Assembly: GCA_046075565.1 (NCBI GenBank)
Contig: JBJTQJ010000073.1
Span: forward strand, 1-38,510
DNA from: Verrucomicrobiales bacterium
GTDB taxonomy: Bacteria > Verrucomicrobiota > Verrucomicrobiia > Verrucomicrobiales > SLCJ01
Length of the DNA stretch: 38,510 nucleotides
Reading direction: 5' to 3'
Made by a program: the position numbers and the translations under genes. This document shows positions 2,345 to 38,510 of this stretch, piece after piece; position 1 is the stretch's first letter; the number at the start of each line of letters is the position of its first letter. The notes below the pieces were generated by a model. It was given only the letters and a program-made list of their open reading frames with translations, ran no database searches and was not told the DNA's origin.

Positions 2345-3007
2345 ATGCCTGCGCACAAACAGAAACTGATCATCATCAGTGCCGGTGCGTTCGGCCGCGA
2401 GGTCCGCGCCATGGCGGCGGGTATCGAGTCTTCCCTCGGCGCGTCTTGCCCATGGAGTGTGGCCGGTTTCCTGGATGACCGACCGAGGATACTCGGTGGC
2501 AAGGATTCCACCGGTGTGCCGATCCTTGCCTCGCCGATGGACTACGTCCCCGCCGACGGGGACAGATTCATCTGTGCTATTGGCGACCCTAGGCAGCGGC
2601 AACACTACGCGGCAATCGTCGCCGACCGGGGGGGCGTCTTCCTCTCGCTCACCTGGCCTCAGTCCGCCGTGTGTGACTTTGCCGGGCGCCGCGGGGATGG
2701 TTCGCTCATCGGGCCGTTCTGTGCCGTCTCCGCGGATGTCGCGATCGGCCCGCACACCATGATTGTCGCCCAGGCCACCATCGGCCATGATGTCATAATC
2801 GGTTCCTGTTGTCATATTGGCGCTTATGCCTTCCTCGGCGGTGGGGCAACCATTGGCAACCGCGTCACCATTCATCCGCATGCCTGCATTCTGCCAGGCG
2901 CCGTGGTCGAGGATGATGCCACTGTCGGGGCCGGCTCCGTGGTTTTGAAAAGAGTGTCCGCCGGGCAAACCGTCTTCGGCGTGCCCGCGCTCCCGGTGAA
3001 AACATGA
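2345..3007 (+). CDS. Sugar O/N-acyltransferase, NeuD/PglD/VioB family
   Basis: IIISAGAFGREV N-terminus, GFLDD, AIGDP, hexapeptide repeats (IGHDVIIG, VGAGSVV), GVPA end. Confidence 0.88.
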   Translation: MPAHKQKLIIISAGAFGREVRAMAAGIESSLGASCPWSVAGFLDDRPRILGGKDSTGVPILASPMDYVPADGDRFICAIGDPRQRQHYAAIVADRGGVFLSLTWPQSAVCDFAGRRGDGSLIGPFCAVSADVAIGPHTMIVAQATIGHDVIIGSCCHIGAYAFLGGGATIGNRVTIHPHACILPGAVVEDDATVGAGSVVLKRVSAGQTVFGVPALPVKT

Positions 3008-3921
3008 ATGCGCTTTCCATGTCTGGTCCTGCTGGCTCGGCGCCGCTTGTTAGCGTCCTCATTCCCACGTTCAACCACGAACGGTTTCTGGCCCGGGCCA
3101 TCGAAAGCGCGTTGGCTCAGATCACCGACTTTCGCGTTGAAATCCTCGTTGGCAATGATGCTTCCACGGACAACACCGGAAATATCCTCAAGGATTTGGC
3201 ATCCCGTCATCCCGACCGCATCCGCGCCTTCCATGCCGAGACCAATGCCGGCGGCCACGCCAACTTCTCGCAACTCTACGCCGCCGCCCATGGCCAATAT
3301 ATCGCCCTGCTGGAAGGCGATGACTATTGGACCGACCCCGGCAAACTCCAGACCCAGATCGATCATCTCGCGGTTCATCCCGAATGCTCGCTCTGTTTCC
3401 ACCAAGTGGAAATACGCGATGAAATCGGCGACTTGCCCGCGACGATCTCCAACCCCTCCGATCCACTGGTGAGCGGACTCTCCCGCATCACCCGCTTTAA
3501 CTATATCCACACCCCATCGGTTGTCTTCCGCAACCGCCTCATCCCGGGGGTGCCCGCCTGGGTCCATTCTCTGCCCATGGGAGATTGGCCGCTTTTTGTC
3601 CTGCTTGCGGAGCATGGTGAACTGCATCTCATCCGGAAACCCATGGCCGTCTATCGGGTTCAAAGCGGCAGCGTCTGGGCATCGCGCACCCAACTTAGTC
3701 GGCTGGTCAGCACGGTTCATGTCGCCGAAGTCTGCGTCCATCACCTCGGCCATCCCGGTTTCCGGGACTGCATCTTCAAGACCTCCCGCACGATCGCCCG
3801 CATGGCCTTGGCGGAACGCGCTCCCTTCCTCTGGCTCAGGCACGCTATGAAATGCGCGCGCATGATCATCAGCCAACCGGAATTGCGCCGGTCGCTTTTT
3901 TCGCCCGGAAAGAAGGTATGA
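3004..3921 (+). CDS. Glycosyltransferase family 2
   Basis: PLVSVLIPTFNHE, NDASTDNT, YIALLEGDDYW, GDW motifs. Confidence 0.92.
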   Translation: MNALSMSGPAGSAPLVSVLIPTFNHERFLARAIESALAQITDFRVEILVGNDASTDNTGNILKDLASRHPDRIRAFHAETNAGGHANFSQLYAAAHGQYIALLEGDDYWTDPGKLQTQIDHLAVHPECSLCFHQVEIRDEIGDLPATISNPSDPLVSGLSRITRFNYIHTPSVVFRNRLIPGVPAWVHSLPMGDWPLFVLLAEHGELHLIRKPMAVYRVQSGSVWASRTQLSRLVSTVHVAEVCVHHLGHPGFRDCIFKTSRTIARMALAERAPFLWLRHAMKCARMIISQPELRRSLFSPGKKV

Positions 3922-33784: not shown

Positions 33785-34137
33785 GACCGGAAAATGAGAA
33801 CCACGGATGCCGCCCTCCGCCGCCCTGCGGGCTATGAAGGGCGAATGGATGGGAAAGGATTTTGAAAAGAATTCTGTGGGCGGATTGGATAAACGCACGG
33901 GTGAAGAAATCTTCTTTTCCAACCTCCTCCGTATCCGCTTTGCCTGATCGATCGCGGCTTCCGATTCCCGAATTCGGGCTTAAGCCCGGACTCCAACCCC
34001 TGAGCCACCTCATCCGGGAAAGGGAGCGCGGGCGTCCTCGCCCGCGAACAGGCCATTCCGAAAGACGACCAATCAGCAGATGACGTGTCTCCTCCCCGCT
34101 GCATCCCCGTTGGAGTTCGGGCTTTCAGCCCGTTCTG
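33785..34137 (+). repeat. ~350-bp direct repeat, copy 1 (REP mosaic)
   Basis: Aligns at offset 2198 with 35983-36335, about 15 mismatches over the 339-bp core by manual count. Confidence 0.95.
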
Positions 34138-34308: not shown

Positions 34309-34662
34309 ATGAAGATCGACTCCAAGCTGACCGACGAAGCGCTCTTGCGGCTGGTCGGGGAACGCTTGGCCGGGGTCCGGCTGGCGCGTAACTTGACGCA
34401 GCAACAGCTGGCGGAAGAGGCCGGACTCGGCCTGCGGACGGTCCAGCGGCTGGAACTGGGTGCCGCGGCGACGCAGTTGTCGGGATTTATCCGCGTGTGC
34501 CGGGTGCTCGGCCTGGTGGAGAATCTCGAGGCATTCATTCCGCAGCCGGCGGTCAGCCCGATGGAGCAATTGAAGCAGGCGGGCCGGAAGCGCCAGCGGG
34601 CGACGGGCCGGAAAGCGGCGACGGGCGGGTCGAAAAAATGGACGTGGGGTGAGCCGTCATGA
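34309..34662 (+). CDS. XRE-family HTH antitoxin (HipB-like)
   Basis: GERLAGVRLARNLTQQQLAEEAGLGLRTVQRLELG; ATGA overlap with hipA. Confidence 0.88.
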   Translation: MKIDSKLTDEALLRLVGERLAGVRLARNLTQQQLAEEAGLGLRTVQRLELGAAATQLSGFIRVCRVLGLVENLEAFIPQPAVSPMEQLKQAGRKRQRATGRKAATGGSKKWTWGEPS

Positions 34663-35963
34663 TCGCGAAGGTCCAACTCTGGGGCCGGACGATCGGCGCG
34701 GTGTCGCTCGACGAAGGTCGCGAGATCGCGGCATTCCAATACGATGCGGACTTCGCGCGCAGCGGGATCGAGCTATCGCCGCTGGTCATGCCGCTGAACG
34801 AGCGGGTCTATGAATTTCCCGCGCTGCCCCGGAACACCTTCCACGGCCTGCCGGGGCTGCTGGCGGATTCGCTGCCCGACAAGTTCGGCAACGCATTGAT
34901 CGACGCATGGCTGGCCACGCAAGGCCGCACGCCGGAAAGTTTCCATGCGGTGGAGCGGCTCTGTTACACCGGCACGCGCGGCATGGGCGCGTTGGAGTTC
35001 GCGCCGGTGATGGGACCAAGACCGCGCCAGGCATCGAAGATCGAAGTGGACGCGCTGGTGCGATTGGCCGGAGAGGTGCTCACGCATCGAGGCGATTTGC
35101 AGGGTCATTTTCACGAAGCCGGAAGGAAGCAGGCGCTGCGGGATATCTTGAGCGTGGGCACTTCCGCCGGCGGCGCGCGGGCCAAGGCGGTGATCGCGTG
35201 GAATCGCGCGACGAACGAAGTGCGCTCCGGGCAGATCGCGGCGGGCGAGGGATTCGAATACTGGCTGCTGAAATTCGACGGCGTGGCCGGCAACAAGGAC
35301 AAGGAACTGGAAGACCCGAAAGGTTACGGGGCCATCGAGTATGCCTATCACCTCATGGCGAGGGCGGCGGGCATCACGATGAGCGAGTGCCGGTTGTTGG
35401 AGGAAAATGGGCGGCGTCATTTCATGACCCGCCGCTTTGATCGCCTGGCGGGCGGGGCGAAGCTGCACATGCAGTCGCTCTGCGCGCTGGCGCATTTCGA
35501 TTTCAACCAGGCCGGAGCCTACAGCTACGAGCAGGCGCTGCTCACCATCCGCCAGTTCGAGCTACCGATGGCGGCGGTGGAGGAACAGTTCCGCCGCATG
35601 GTCTTCAACATCGTGGCGCGGAATCAGGATGACCATGTGAAGAACATCGCCTTTCTCATGAACCAGCAAGGCGAGTGGTCGCTCGCGCCGGCCTTCGACG
35701 TGACCTACAGCTACAATCCATCCGGCTCATGGACCGCGACCCATCAGATGACGCTGAATGGGAAACGGGACGGATTCACGCTCGCGGATTTCGAGGCCTG
35801 CGCGAAGGCGGCAATGATGAAGCGCGGCCGGGCCGGAATGATCATCGGGGAGGTGCTGGCCGCGGTAAACCGCTGGCCGGAGTTTGCAGCCCAAGCACAG
35901 CTCTCGGATAAATGGCGAAACCAAATCGGAAAGATGCACCGGCTGACTTTCCCTGAAAAGTGA
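34659..35963 (+). CDS. hipA: HipA-family Ser/Thr kinase toxin
   Basis: N-terminal couple domain (LWGRTIG, FQY, DSLPDKFG), SAGGARAK P-loop, LLKFD, RFDR, NQDDHVKN, LAPAFDV. Confidence 0.93.
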   Translation: MIAKVQLWGRTIGAVSLDEGREIAAFQYDADFARSGIELSPLVMPLNERVYEFPALPRNTFHGLPGLLADSLPDKFGNALIDAWLATQGRTPESFHAVERLCYTGTRGMGALEFAPVMGPRPRQASKIEVDALVRLAGEVLTHRGDLQGHFHEAGRKQALRDILSVGTSAGGARAKAVIAWNRATNEVRSGQIAAGEGFEYWLLKFDGVAGNKDKELEDPKGYGAIEYAYHLMARAAGITMSECRLLEENGRRHFMTRRFDRLAGGAKLHMQSLCALAHFDFNQAGAYSYEQALLTIRQFELPMAAVEEQFRRMVFNIVARNQDDHVKNIAFLMNQQGEWSLAPAFDVTYSYNPSGSWTATHQMTLNGKRDGFTLADFEACAKAAMMKRGRAGMIIGEVLAAVNRWPEFAAQAQLSDKWRNQIGKMHRLTFPEK

Positions 35964-35982: not shown

Positions 35983-36335
35983 GACCGGGAATGCAAAACC
36001 ACGGATGCCGCCCTCCGCCGCCCTGCGGGCCATGAAGGGCGAATGGATGGGAAAGGATTTTGAACAGAATTCTATTGGCGGATTGGATAAACGCACGGGT
36101 GAAGAAATCTTCTTTTCCAACCTCCTCCGTATCCGCTTTGCCTGATCGATCGTGGCTTCCGATTCCCGAATTCGGGCTTAAGCCCGGACTCCAACCCCTG
36201 AGCCACCTCATCCGGGAAAGGGAGCGCGGGCGTCCTCGCCCGCGAACAGGCTATCCAGCGAGGTGACCAATCAGCAAATGACGTGTCTCCTCCCTGCTGC
36301 ATCCCCGTTGGAGTTCGGGCTTTTAGCCCGTTCTG
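35983..36335 (+). repeat. ~350-bp direct repeat, copy 2 (REP mosaic)
   Basis: Matches 33785-34137; followed by a third partial copy of its 5' end at 36339-36378. Confidence 0.95.
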
Positions 36336-36596
36336 GCAACCGGGAAAGGAAAACCACGGACATCGCCCTCGCCCGCCCAAGAAAAAATTCTTGGTCTTTT
36401 CGCCCCGAAATCGTCGGGGGAGGCTTGCAGTCTGGCGTCTTCTAGTGTCTAACTGACTCAGTTGTCGCATTTCCGATTCTCCATGCCTGCCCGTGGCAAA
36501 GCTTCCTCACCCAAAGACTCGGCCGCCAACCTCGGCTTCGAGGCCAAGCTCTGGCTCGCCGCCGACAAGCTCCGTAACAACATGGACGCGGCGGAG

Positions 36597-36662
36597 CCGA
36601 GCGGAGCGAGACAGCCTGCCCGACAGGGCAGCCCGAAGGGGCAGCGCGGGGGCGCTGAGCAA
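36597..36662 (+). repeat. 66-bp in-frame multi-hairpin insert in hsdM
   Basis: Splits MDAAE|YKHVV; stems ctgccc/gggcag, ccc/ggg, cagcgc/gcgctg. Confidence 0.8.
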
Positions 36663-37015
36663 TACAAGCACGTCGTCCTCGGCCTCATCTTCCTCAAATA
36701 CATCTCCGACACCTTCGAGGAACACCGGGAAAAACTCATCGCTGGCGAGGGCGACTACGCCGGGGCCAATCCCGAGGACCCGGACGAATACAAGGCCGAG
36801 AACGTCTTCTGGGTGCCCGCCGATGCCCGCTGGTCCCACCTCCAGGCCAGCGCCAAGCAGCCCACCATCGGCAAGACCGTGGACGACGCCATGGTCGCCA
36901 TCGAGCGCGACAACCCGCGCCTCAAAGGCGTCCTGCCCAAAGACTACGCCCGCCCCGGCCTCGACAAGCACCGCCTCGGCGAACTCATCGACCTCATCGG
37001 GACGATCGCCCTCGC

Positions 37016-37090
37016 CTGTAGCGGCGGTCTGCGACCGTCGCACGATGCCAATGAAGAGGAATCAGCGACGGTCACAGAACGCCGCTACAG
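37016..37090. repeat. REP doublet (REPIN-like) inside hsdM
   Basis: 26-nt inverted arms 37016-37041 and 37065-37090 (24/26 match), each with GTAG at the outer end. Confidence 0.85.
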
Positions 37091-37268
37091 TTCCCACCGC
37101 TCCGTCGATCTGCTCGGCCGCGTGTATGAGTATTTCCTCACCCGCTTCGCCAGCGCCGAGGGCAAGAACGGCGGCCAGTTCTACACCCCGTCCTGCGTCG
37201 TGCGCTGCCTCGTCGAGATGCTCGCCCCCTACAAAGGCCGCATCTACGACCCCGCCTGCGGCTCCGGC

Positions 37269-37697
37269 GGCAGGGGCGAAGTGGGAAATCAGAATTATGA
37301 AGGAAGACAACGACCTCAAGGACCGCACCAAACAGTTTGCGCTGCGAATCATCCGCCTGTTCGGCAGTCTGCCGAAATCGACGGAAGCTCAGGTGCTGGG
37401 CAAACAACTGCTCCGTTCGGGAACATCCGTCGGGGCGAACTACCGGGAAGCGCATCGTGGACGGAGCAAAGCCGAGTTCATCGCCAAATGCGGCGACTCG
37501 CTCCGGGAACTGGAAGAATCGGCGTATTGGTTGGAGCTGCTTGTCGATGGGGAAATTGTGCCAGCGGCCAAGCTGCAACCACTCCGTGCCGAGTGCGACG
37601 AACTCACCGCCATCTTTGTCACGGTCATCAAACGAGCGAGAGACAGCGCCTGACTCCCTTTCTTCCTTCATCATTCTTCCTTCAAACTTCCCCTGCC
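37269..37697 (+). mobile_element. Inverted-repeat-bounded cassette carrying a four-helix-bundle gene
   Basis: IRs 37269-37307 and 37661-37697 (GGCAGGGG..AAGT..AGAATKATGAAGGAAGA) enclose the ORF; no recombinase visible. Confidence 0.6.
37297..37653 (+). CDS. Four helix bundle protein (23S rRNA IVP / TIGR02436-like), nested in hsdM in another frame
   Basis: [65 protein letters not shown]. Confidence 0.93.
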
Positions 37698-37718
37698 TGG
37701 GTGCAGCACTTCATCCAC

Positions 37719-37748
37719 TGCATCCTCCGTAGCCTTGGCGAAGGGGGA
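37719..37748 (+). repeat. 30-bp in-frame hairpin insert in hsdM
   Basis: Splits QHFIH|HLAP; tcctccgtagccttggcgaaggggga. Confidence 0.75.
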
Positions 37749-38099
37749 CACCTCGCCCCGCAAGGCATGGCCGGCTTCGTCCTCGCCAATGGCAGCATGT
37801 CGTCGAACCAGTCCGGCGAAGGCGACATCCGCCGCGCCCTCATCGAGGCCGACCTCGTGGACTGCATGGTCGCCCTCCCCGGCCAACTCTTCTACAGCAC
37901 GCAGATTCCCGTCTGCCTCTGGTTCCTCGCGAAAAACAAAAACGCCGACACCAAACGCGGCTTCCGCGACCGCCGCCAGCAAATCCTCTTCATCGACGCC
38001 CGCAAACTCGGCACCCTCATCGACCGCGTCCACCGCGAGCTGACCGACGCCGATCTTGAGAAAATCACCGCCACGTATCATGCGTGGAGGGCAGAAAGT

Positions 38100-38174
38100 C
38101 TCACGCAAAGCCGCAAAGTCGCCAAAGTAGGCAATGAATCTTCATCTCTTAGCGCCTTTGCGCCTTTGCGTAAG
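38100..38174. repeat. Octamer-periodic inverted repeat inside hsdM
   Basis: ctcacgcaaagccgcaaagtcgccaaa pairs with cttagcgcctttgcgcctttgcgtaag (22/27). Confidence 0.8.
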
Positions 38175-38397
38175 TATTCCGATGTCCCGGGCTTCTGCAA
38201 ATCCGCCACCACCGCCGAAATCGCCGCCCACGGTCACGTGCTCACGCCCGGCCGCTACGTCGGCGCCGAGGAAGTCGAAGACGACGGCGACCCCTTCGAG
38301 GAAAAGATGCCGCGCCTCGTCGCCGAACTGCACGCCCAGTTCGCCGAGTCCGCGAAACTGGAGCAGGCCATCAAAGCAAACCTGAGGGGGCTGGGTT

Positions 38398-38510
38398 ATG
38401 GCGGGTGAATGGAAAACCATCGCACTAAAAGACATCGCCGAGTCCATTAACACGGGACTAGATGCAATTACTCGCGCCCCGATTGTGTCCTATCCAACTG
38501 AAATCAAGTG
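38398..38510 (+). CDS. hsdS: Type I R-M specificity subunit, N-terminus (partial)
   Basis: [14 protein letters not shown] start overlapping hsdM end; GC content drops as expected for a TRD. Confidence 0.75.

Follow-up and report, generated by a model that had tools for sequence, protein, structure and literature searches.

How does a gene that is interrupted five times remain open from one end to the other? The question is raised by hsdM, the methyltransferase gene of a type I restriction-modification system, at the 3' end of contig C73 (JBJTQJ010000073.1) in assembly GCA_046075565.1 of a Verrucomicrobiales bacterium. The window analysed here is the entire contig of 38,510 nt, and the assembly amounts to 3.9 Mb in 129 contigs with 59.6% G+C. 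The locus is probably an hsdM allele that has lost its catalytic activity and become host to small selfish elements of four kinds which, judging from its sequence and those of its relatives, are translated as part of the host open reading frame (ORF). One of them, a cassette of the intervening sequence (IVS) type, has taken the place of part of the catalytic core.

The interrupted hsdM gene

The ORF and its five extra segments are as follows.

36462..38408, forward strand: hsdM-derived ORF of 648 codons, open from end to end, with a TTG start at 36462
36597..36662, forward strand: insert 1, a three-hairpin element (model R1) of 66 nt that splits NNMDAAE from YKHVVLG and adds 22 residues
37016..37090, forward strand: insert 2, a 75-nt hairpin (CTGTAGCGGCG...CGCCGCTACAG), a GTAG-tagged doublet of repetitive extragenic palindromic (REP) sequences, REPIN-like, in the variable loop after reference residue ~161
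37272..37694, forward strand: cassette of the IVS type, standing in place of HsdM residues 229-328, through which the hsdM frame stays open
37719..37748, forward strand: insert 4, 30 nt, between FIH and HLAP (cac/CAC), absent from close relatives
38100..38174, forward strand: insert 5, a 75-nt hairpin with CGCAAAG-type arms (CTCACGCAAAGCCGCAAAG...CTTTGCGCCTTTGCGTAAG), in the hypervariable linker at reference residues ~452-456

The likelier start of the gene is the ATG at 36483. The ORF was aligned to 11 relatives, and empty-site DNA was used to fix the edges of the inserts. A preliminary description of this DNA had reported a frame open from end to end with five extra segments, and both observations hold: the limits of inserts 1 and 4 are exact by empty-site DNA, and the edges at 37271 and 37695 were set by tblastn. 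The segment at 37272-37694 had been counted there as one more insert; it is present as an extra segment, but it replaces hsdM residues and holds a complete gene. At least two of the inserts had also been placed in structured cores; inserts 1 and 4 do each split a conserved motif, and inserts 2 and 5 lie in hypervariable loops. Members of this hsdM subfamily are 60-88% identical across bacteria and archaea, and in 81 aligned alleles inserts of at least 8 residues cluster after reference residues ~161, 401-405 and 452-456. Other alleles carry different inserts at the same positions, as had been anticipated, both in these alignments and in the empty-site comparison.

Replacement of the catalytic core by an IVS-type cassette

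The intact relative P0013, whose residues serve for the numbering of all junctions, was compared with the window by tblastn. Its residues 1-228 match up to 37271 and its residues 329-541 resume at 37695. The 423-nt segment is a replacement rather than added sequence, as residues 229-328 of P0013 (MFVQ...NPPF...GNANF) are gone, and a tblastn search for these 100 core residues over the 3.9-Mb assembly found nothing. Pfam search of the ORF identified HsdM_N and N6_Mtase, the latter split into two stretches; this sole N6_Mtase match in the genome spans profile positions 2-59 and 172-311, with positions 60-171 of 311 absent. In the alignment to the nearest solved structure, 3khk_A, query residues 66-271 and 430-546 are covered, and chain residues ~259-383 have no counterpart. 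Motif I of N6_Mtase (DPACGSGG) is kept. As a methyltransferase the window HsdM is nevertheless, as predicted from these alignments, catalytically dead, because about 100 core codons including the NPPF motif have been replaced.

The cassette consists of a gene between two complementary arms.

37278..37305, forward strand: left cassette arm of four GAAnnnn heptads, containing the IVP start codon (37297)
37297..37653, forward strand: IVP gene for a four-helix-bundle protein of 118 aa (PF05635, 23S_rRNA_IVP), in frame +1 with respect to hsdM
37660..37694, forward strand: right cassette arm of five TTCnnnn heptads, complementary to the left arm

The product of the IVP gene matches PF05635 with an E-value of 2.9e-21 and 76.1 bits (cut-off 33.8), and the analogy to 23S rRNA IVS elements drawn in the preliminary description proved apt, since the cassette carries the 23S-IVS protein gene itself. 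Ratios of nonsynonymous to synonymous substitution rates (dN/dS) of 0.01-0.06 among its relatives indicate strong constraint on the protein. In both the minimum free energy (MFE) and the centroid structure, the ~40 nt at one end of the cassette pair with those at the other, with an MFE of -174.4 kcal/mol as against -157.1 for shuffled sequences (z -2.8; none of 100 shuffles as good), and the arms are conserved among related loci. The only other PF05635-like gene of the genome, at 4600-5300 of contig C15, is 36% identical to the window IVP and lies outside any gene; it is flanked by long inverted GAACATT arrays (AATGTTC/GACGTTC on the right side) and forms a classical heptamer-armed IVS-type cassette.

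Several other ways of accommodating the cassette were considered and set aside. An Rfam search at E-values up to 1 gave no match on the cassette or on insert 1 and no intron family; sub-threshold, spurious miRNA-like matches fell on the insert 2 hairpin only. Retrohoming as in diversity-generating retroelements was rejected, as a profile search of the assembly, which is 100% complete by marker genes but fragmented, found no reverse transcriptase (RVT_1) match; no template or variable repeats of that type were seen. A programmed frameshift at GGGAAAT in the left arm was rejected because the motif is not conserved (GCGAAAT in locus L001) and a -1 shift misses the IVP frame. Translational bypass with matching take-off and landing codons fits L001 (CAA...CAA) and fails for L011.

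Stop-codon avoidance in the host frame

The frame of the host gene is -1 relative to the IVP gene. This frame is free of stops in 16 of the 18 IVP genes that are at least 82.6% identical to that of the window, as against 5 of 62 others (n = 80), and the -2 frame is open in 1 of the 80. A second, independent set of 80 loci, from metagenomes, gave the same picture: the -1 frame is open in eight loci, each at least 80.9% identical, and interrupted by four stops in one locus at 81.7% identity; the 71 more distant loci all have it closed. When codons of the clade genes were shuffled synonymously, 1.5-3.9 stops were expected in the -1 frame, with a probability of an open frame of 0.004-0.16 per gene; the -2 frame was as expected.

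The avoidance can be traced to individual codons in an alignment of 17 clade members, with 76-90% DNA identity and 83-97% protein identity to the window. Third-position T stands before codons beginning with AA, AG or GA in 1 of 536 cells, compared with 190 of 1434 elsewhere. Counted by column, it stands there in 1 of 19 as against 41 of 74 elsewhere (p 5e-5), and 15 of the 19 risky columns vary among A, C and G. A dinucleotide control gave T before other codons starting with A or G in 68 of 629 cells, against the same 1 of 536 (p 5e-18). Distant IVP genes have T at 199 of 1828 risky positions, and the more distant cassettes, which lie between genes, exhibit no avoidance. The peptide read through the cassette is unconserved, with ~75% amino-acid identity at 89% DNA identity, and therefore uninterrupted reading, not the peptide sequence, appears to be under selection. 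On this comparative evidence the host frame of the cassette is kept stop-free by purifying selection. The earlier proposal that translation through the locus is selected is borne out, by comparative codon analysis, for the 423-nt cassette.

The cassette clade inside hsdM across genomes

Species-representative genomes yielded 79 loci with the window IVP protein as query. The IVPs nearest to it (84-97% identity) are nested in hsdM, in metagenome-assembled genomes (MAGs) of various Verrucomicrobiota and in others labelled as Gammaproteobacteria or Planctomycetota. The cassette clade lies within hsdM in about 25 related loci, at many junctions and with a constant relative frame. In the 79 loci, left ends were found at residues 229, 134, 118, 108, 56 and 36 and right starts at 329, 347, 318, 296 and 195. 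Junction pairs, counting those of the metagenome set, include 229/329, 229/347, 229/296, 56/347, 36/318, 118/195, 117/347 and 46/241. In a collection of 5.8 billion proteins the read-through peptide was identified in 18 proteins, 17 of which possess HsdM domains while the 18th has an hsdM fragment; they add left junctions at 189, 181, 157 and 141 and right junctions at 266, 279 and 378. On both sides of the cassette, all detectable hsdM homology is in frame -1 relative to IVP, and the eight flanking hsdM matches in six loci of the metagenome set are all in this frame.

Among about 35 alleles, none represents a simple insertion of the cassette without loss of hsdM sequence. Replacement of the core through two in-frame cassette insertions followed by recombination is unsupported for this reason. 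The suggestion that the elements diversify or switch defence genes finds no support either, as each cassette-bearing allele is without part of its catalytic domain, which points to inactivation.

More distant IVP genes are mostly found between ordinary genes (63 loci). Seven of the 63 lie beside HsdR and/or HsdS genes (L017, L042, L052, L056, L067, L070 and L076) and one beside an HsdM_N fragment (L015). L056, L067 and L076 each contain a free-standing IVP gene (~3001-3350 in each) between hsdR and hsdS of a type I operon. Genes for DUF1016/YhcG nucleases of the PD-(D/E)XK type follow the cassette-bearing hsdM in L004 (2178-3254) and L009 (2568-4826), and in L009 the nuclease gene is fused into the hsdM open frame.

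Insert 1 and the three-hairpin family

Insert 1 has its empty site in L024, L007 and L080, reading gcgGAA/tac. Related elements of 60-66 nt are distributed amongst the cassette-bearing hsdM loci L001, L002 (several copies), L003, L005, L011, L015 and L024. They share the layout (CC/TG)GAGCGGAGCGA, hairpin 1, CCCGAAGGG, hairpin 3, CAA. In an alignment of 11 sequences the three helices pair in 95.8% of cells, compared with 37-42% when partners are slid, and six pairs have changed on both sides, a covariation score reached by none of 500 shuffles.

A covariance model of this family (R1) was searched against several sets of sequences. In the window's own genome it gave one strong match, the hsdM copy (E 8.6e-17), and two weak ones (E 0.046 and 0.14). 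In the 79 IVP loci plus the window it gave 25 matches at E-values up to 0.1, 24 of them on the hsdM strand, and in 80 intact-hsdM loci no strong match and two weak ones (E 0.019 and 0.032). Matches at E-values up to 0.001 occur in 101 of 151 genomes of the order, with a maximum of 33 in one genome. Among the best 29 matches in other genomes, 15 adjoin hsdM homology, each with a length of 63 or 66 nt; eight of the remaining 14 have a length that is a multiple of three.

Within hsdM, R1 elements are located after codons for E, D or Q and before codons for Y or F. A single element joins hsdM site 39 to site 178, 185 or 314 (L003:2622-2684, L164:509-571 and L167:1501-1563), suggesting that recombination between in-frame copies produces in-frame deletions. 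In L015 (3223-3288), a three-hairpin copy interrupts the IVP gene itself.

Inserts 2, 4 and 5

Each insert had been said to fold into a stem-loop. By comparison with shuffled sequences this applies to insert 2 (z -7.9) and insert 5 (z -5.0), but not to insert 1 (z -1.0) or insert 4 (z 0.0), whose fold energies are no better than those of shuffles, although the hairpins of insert 1 have the support of covariation. Inserts 2 and 5 share a geometry of 26-nt arms with 23 nt between them.

Insert 2 carries GTAG and CTAC at its outer ends and consists of two inverted 26-nt units, and its arms recur at about nine other loci of its own genome (hairpin family D). The GTAG tag, the inverted units and the multiple copies are those of a REP doublet. 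The genome has 11 Y1_Tnp matches, none of which was seen flanked by the insert 2 REP. Elsewhere, Y1_Tnp genes, similar to IS200 or to the REP-associated tyrosine transposases (RAYT), stand directly beside long hairpins at C112:42996-43588 and C124:12573-13029, which suggests REPtron- or TIRtron-like units that might mobilise the hairpin families of the genome. A scan for hairpins across the genome returned 115, in families A-D; assignment of these to genes by spanning ORFs and third-position G+C was too noisy to use.

Insert 4 contains the 18-mer CCGTAGCCTTGGCGAAGG, the core of a longer repeat with six other exact copies in the genome. At the site of insert 5, the relatives P0005, P0007, P0009 and P0031 possess a similar peptide, LTRSR...LRA.A..RE, indicating that this insert is old, or recurrent, in functional alleles. 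The 16-mer of its arm, ACGCAAAGCCGCAAAG (38103-38118), recurs in very different phyla, at no fewer than 121 loci, most of them short hairpins that hold no gene, in the form CTCACGCAAAG(N)CGCAAAG...CTTTGCG..GTGAG between genes. In 80 such loci that were fetched, an inverted partner is present within 140 nt in 40, an IVP gene stands beside the arm in one (L329) and a PDDEXK_3 gene is enclosed in one (L332). The idea that the arms of inserts 2 and 5 belong to a cargo-bearing cassette was dropped, since the 16-mer loci otherwise appear gene-less.

Setting of the gene and alleles in public runs

38399..38510, forward strand: start of hsdS, whose ATG overlaps the end of hsdM (ATGGCGGGTGA); the contig stops 110 nt further on

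We take this piece to be hsdS from its likeness to typical HsdS N-termini; Pfam Methylase_S was not detected on the short piece (38399..38510), which is cut by the contig end. In a profile search of the assembly neither Methylase_S nor HSDR_N gave a match; the contig breaks inside hsdS, so that their absence is unproven. Upstream of hsdM, a 300-nt direct repeat is found at 33785-34084 and 35983-36282, in two copies that are 94% identical and the sole ones in the genome. The copies flank a hipB/hipA toxin-antitoxin pair (34309-34662 and 34659-35963), and the second ends ~180 nt before hsdM.

Public runs were searched as assembled contigs only, and stretches lacking cover and small word shares were given no weight. 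Contigs of run X1 cover insert 1 (2 differences over 434 nt) as well as the whole cassette together with insert 4 (0 differences over 551 nt); this run holds 60% of the sampled words and is possibly the source sample, so that its contigs do not count as independent support. The same runs contain alleles with an empty insert 1 site, alleles with an intact core continuing after 37272, and an allele in which an ordinary loop replaces insert 2 (joint 36999>37093). One further allele joins the cassette at another hsdM position. These alternative alleles may come from other organisms.

Proposed explanation and alternatives

The cassette would be dual-coded, with its own gene in one frame and the host frame, at -1 relative to it, free of stops. 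Ribosomes starting on hsdM would continue across the cassette, translate the 3' part of hsdM and arrive at the overlapping start of hsdS. The short elements come from families whose intragenic copies are stop-free and multiples of three in length. A tentative reason for the selection is that uninterrupted translation may be needed to avoid polarity and loss of mRNA for the cassette gene and for the genes downstream; we hold this with less than even confidence.

Some points weigh against this explanation. The assembly is without HsdS or HsdR domain matches and the contig ends 110 nt into hsdS, so that the genes on which polarity would act downstream are missing from the available sequence. With part of the catalytic domain gone from each cassette-bearing allele seen, an open frame would bring such a dead gene no obvious benefit. 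The dN/dS values of the hsdM flanks in cassette-bearing alleles (0.32-0.58 for the N part and 0.21-0.38 for long C parts) overlap the range of intact alleles (median 0.16, range 0.08-0.44) and decide nothing. Finally, the clade genes share descent, so that the p-values counted by cell are inflated, and the column test and the replication in the second collection are the safer figures.

One alternative is a read-through fusion with a function of its own, in which the dead HsdM scaffold might still bind HsdS or HsdR and serve, for instance, as a regulatory or dominant-negative subunit, the frame being kept open for the sake of the protein. In its favour, the host frame is open for 47-491 codons beyond the cassette on both sides, the dN/dS of the C part (0.21-0.38) falls within the intact range of 0.08-0.39, and an hsdS overlapping or following the ORF is kept in the window, L001 and L009. 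Many alleles, however, retain just 40-80 hsdM residues on either side (L006, L013, L019 and L197), type I partner genes are missing from the neighbourhood of several loci, the dN/dS of the N part is raised, and the linker is unconstrained, with the low peptide identity given above. A functional fusion is accordingly considered unlikely.

The locus could also be a plain pseudogene, with G+C-rich sequence and selective noticing to account for the open frame. Long spurious ORFs are common in a genome with this base composition, the core is lost, and there are only five events, two of them in tolerant loops. The preliminary description had argued that five random inserts would all keep the frame with a chance of (1/3)^5, which is an overstatement: inserts 2 and 5 lie in tolerant loops of a family that has insert-bearing intact members, and the insert 1 family is intrinsically 63 or 66 nt long. 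Nevertheless, stop avoidance is confined to one frame and one clade and is replicated in a second collection, and the relative frame is constant at more than eight junction pairs. For the cassette this explanation is largely refuted, and for the locus as a whole it is improbable.

It had further been proposed that the hairpins are removed or skipped at the level of RNA or ribosome to yield a normal HsdM, be it by RNase III excision with re-joining, by splicing or by ribosomal bypass. The ends of the cassette do form the type of stem that RNase III cuts in the IVSs of rRNA, and inserts 2 and 5 are strong hairpins. Yet cutting by RNase III severs an mRNA rather than splicing it, no Rfam intron or other family was matched apart from the spurious hits mentioned, and no removal would recreate the 100 core residues that are absent from the assembly. 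As the missing core is not restorable and the preservation of frame and avoidance of stops would then be pointless, removal or skipping is not supported by the sequences, and we regard it as highly improbable. An assembly artefact or a chimeric MAG, for which the position of the gene at the end of a 38.5-kb contig in a 129-contig assembly and the co-occurrence of other hsdM alleles in the same public runs could speak, may practically be dismissed, as the cassette-in-hsdM architecture, partly with the same junctions, is present in more than 20 independent assemblies and run X1, although possibly the source sample, has contigs across the junctions with 0-2 differences.

Comparison with known systems

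Passages on the Coxiella IVS in PMC4990558 describe an element of 428-444 nt with a 28-bp terminal stem, heptamer repeats upstream of an S23p ORF, and excision by RNase III. The window cassette resembles the IVSs of 23S rRNA (in Coxiella burnetii, Leptospira and others; S23p/PF05635) in its PF05635 four-helix-bundle gene, its size of ~420-440 nt, its arms of the purine-rich heptamer type, which form a long terminal stem, its start codon at or in the 5' arm, and the replacement of target sequence rather than addition to it. It differs in lying inside the protein gene hsdM and not in a 23S rRNA helix, and in a host frame that selection appears to keep stop-free, that is, in dual coding.

Rickettsia palindromic elements are short hairpin-forming repeats that sit in frame in protein genes and are apparently translated. 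The analogy to them that had been drawn holds for the short inserts of the window, compared by description only: these too are hairpin repeats, in frame and stop-free in coding genes, with translation predicted. Unlike the Rickettsia elements, they are 30-75 nt long, belong to several families and occur in genomes of the Verrucomicrobiota type, and R1 is set apart by its three covarying hairpins and by its sites, which lie preferentially after E, D or Q and before Y or F codons.

GTAG REPs, REP dimers, REPs inside genes and an abundance of GTAG repeats in a verrucomicrobium are reported in sections of Di Nocera et al. 2013 (PMC3733652). Insert 2 is similar to such GTAG REP doublets or REPINs in its outer GTAG/CTAC, its two inverted units, its further copies in the genome and the presence of Y1_Tnp genes. 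It differs in that this copy lies in a coding loop; of the 11 Y1_Tnp matches, none was seen to be a RAYT or to be linked to the insert 2 family. The Avd protein of diversity-generating retroelements is given as a PF05635 homologue in a passage of PMC10053308, and 23S_rRNA_IVP genes inside cas operons appear in part of PMC3936711. With these the window gene shares the protein family and the habit of sitting inside defence loci, but no reverse transcriptase was matched in its assembly, and it is nested within a gene rather than placed between genes.

Implications

No paper on IVS-type cassettes nested in frame in protein genes, or on the three-hairpin element, was found in a literature search with subscription journals and supplements outside its reach. 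The R1 three-hairpin element represents a further uncatalogued structured repeat that is widespread in the bacterial order. There is also a consequence for annotation, in that long HsdM proteins in databases may be read-through products of nested elements, a source of error.

It is possible, though on balance doubtful, that IVS-type cassettes and their companion mini-hairpins form a dual-coded, translation-transparent class of selfish elements within protein genes, above all hsdM, which would disarm defence by replacing the catalytic core, a gene-replacement anti-defence element, and might spread via the conserved hsdM flanks or microhomologies. The finding ties IVS elements to the loss of type I restriction-modification function. 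IVS elements and the four-helix-bundle proteins that they encode were described over 30 years ago, and to our knowledge neither a function nor a way of spreading has been established since; a clade of them that lies inside a protein gene, under measurable selection for a translatable host frame, would offer a testable handle.

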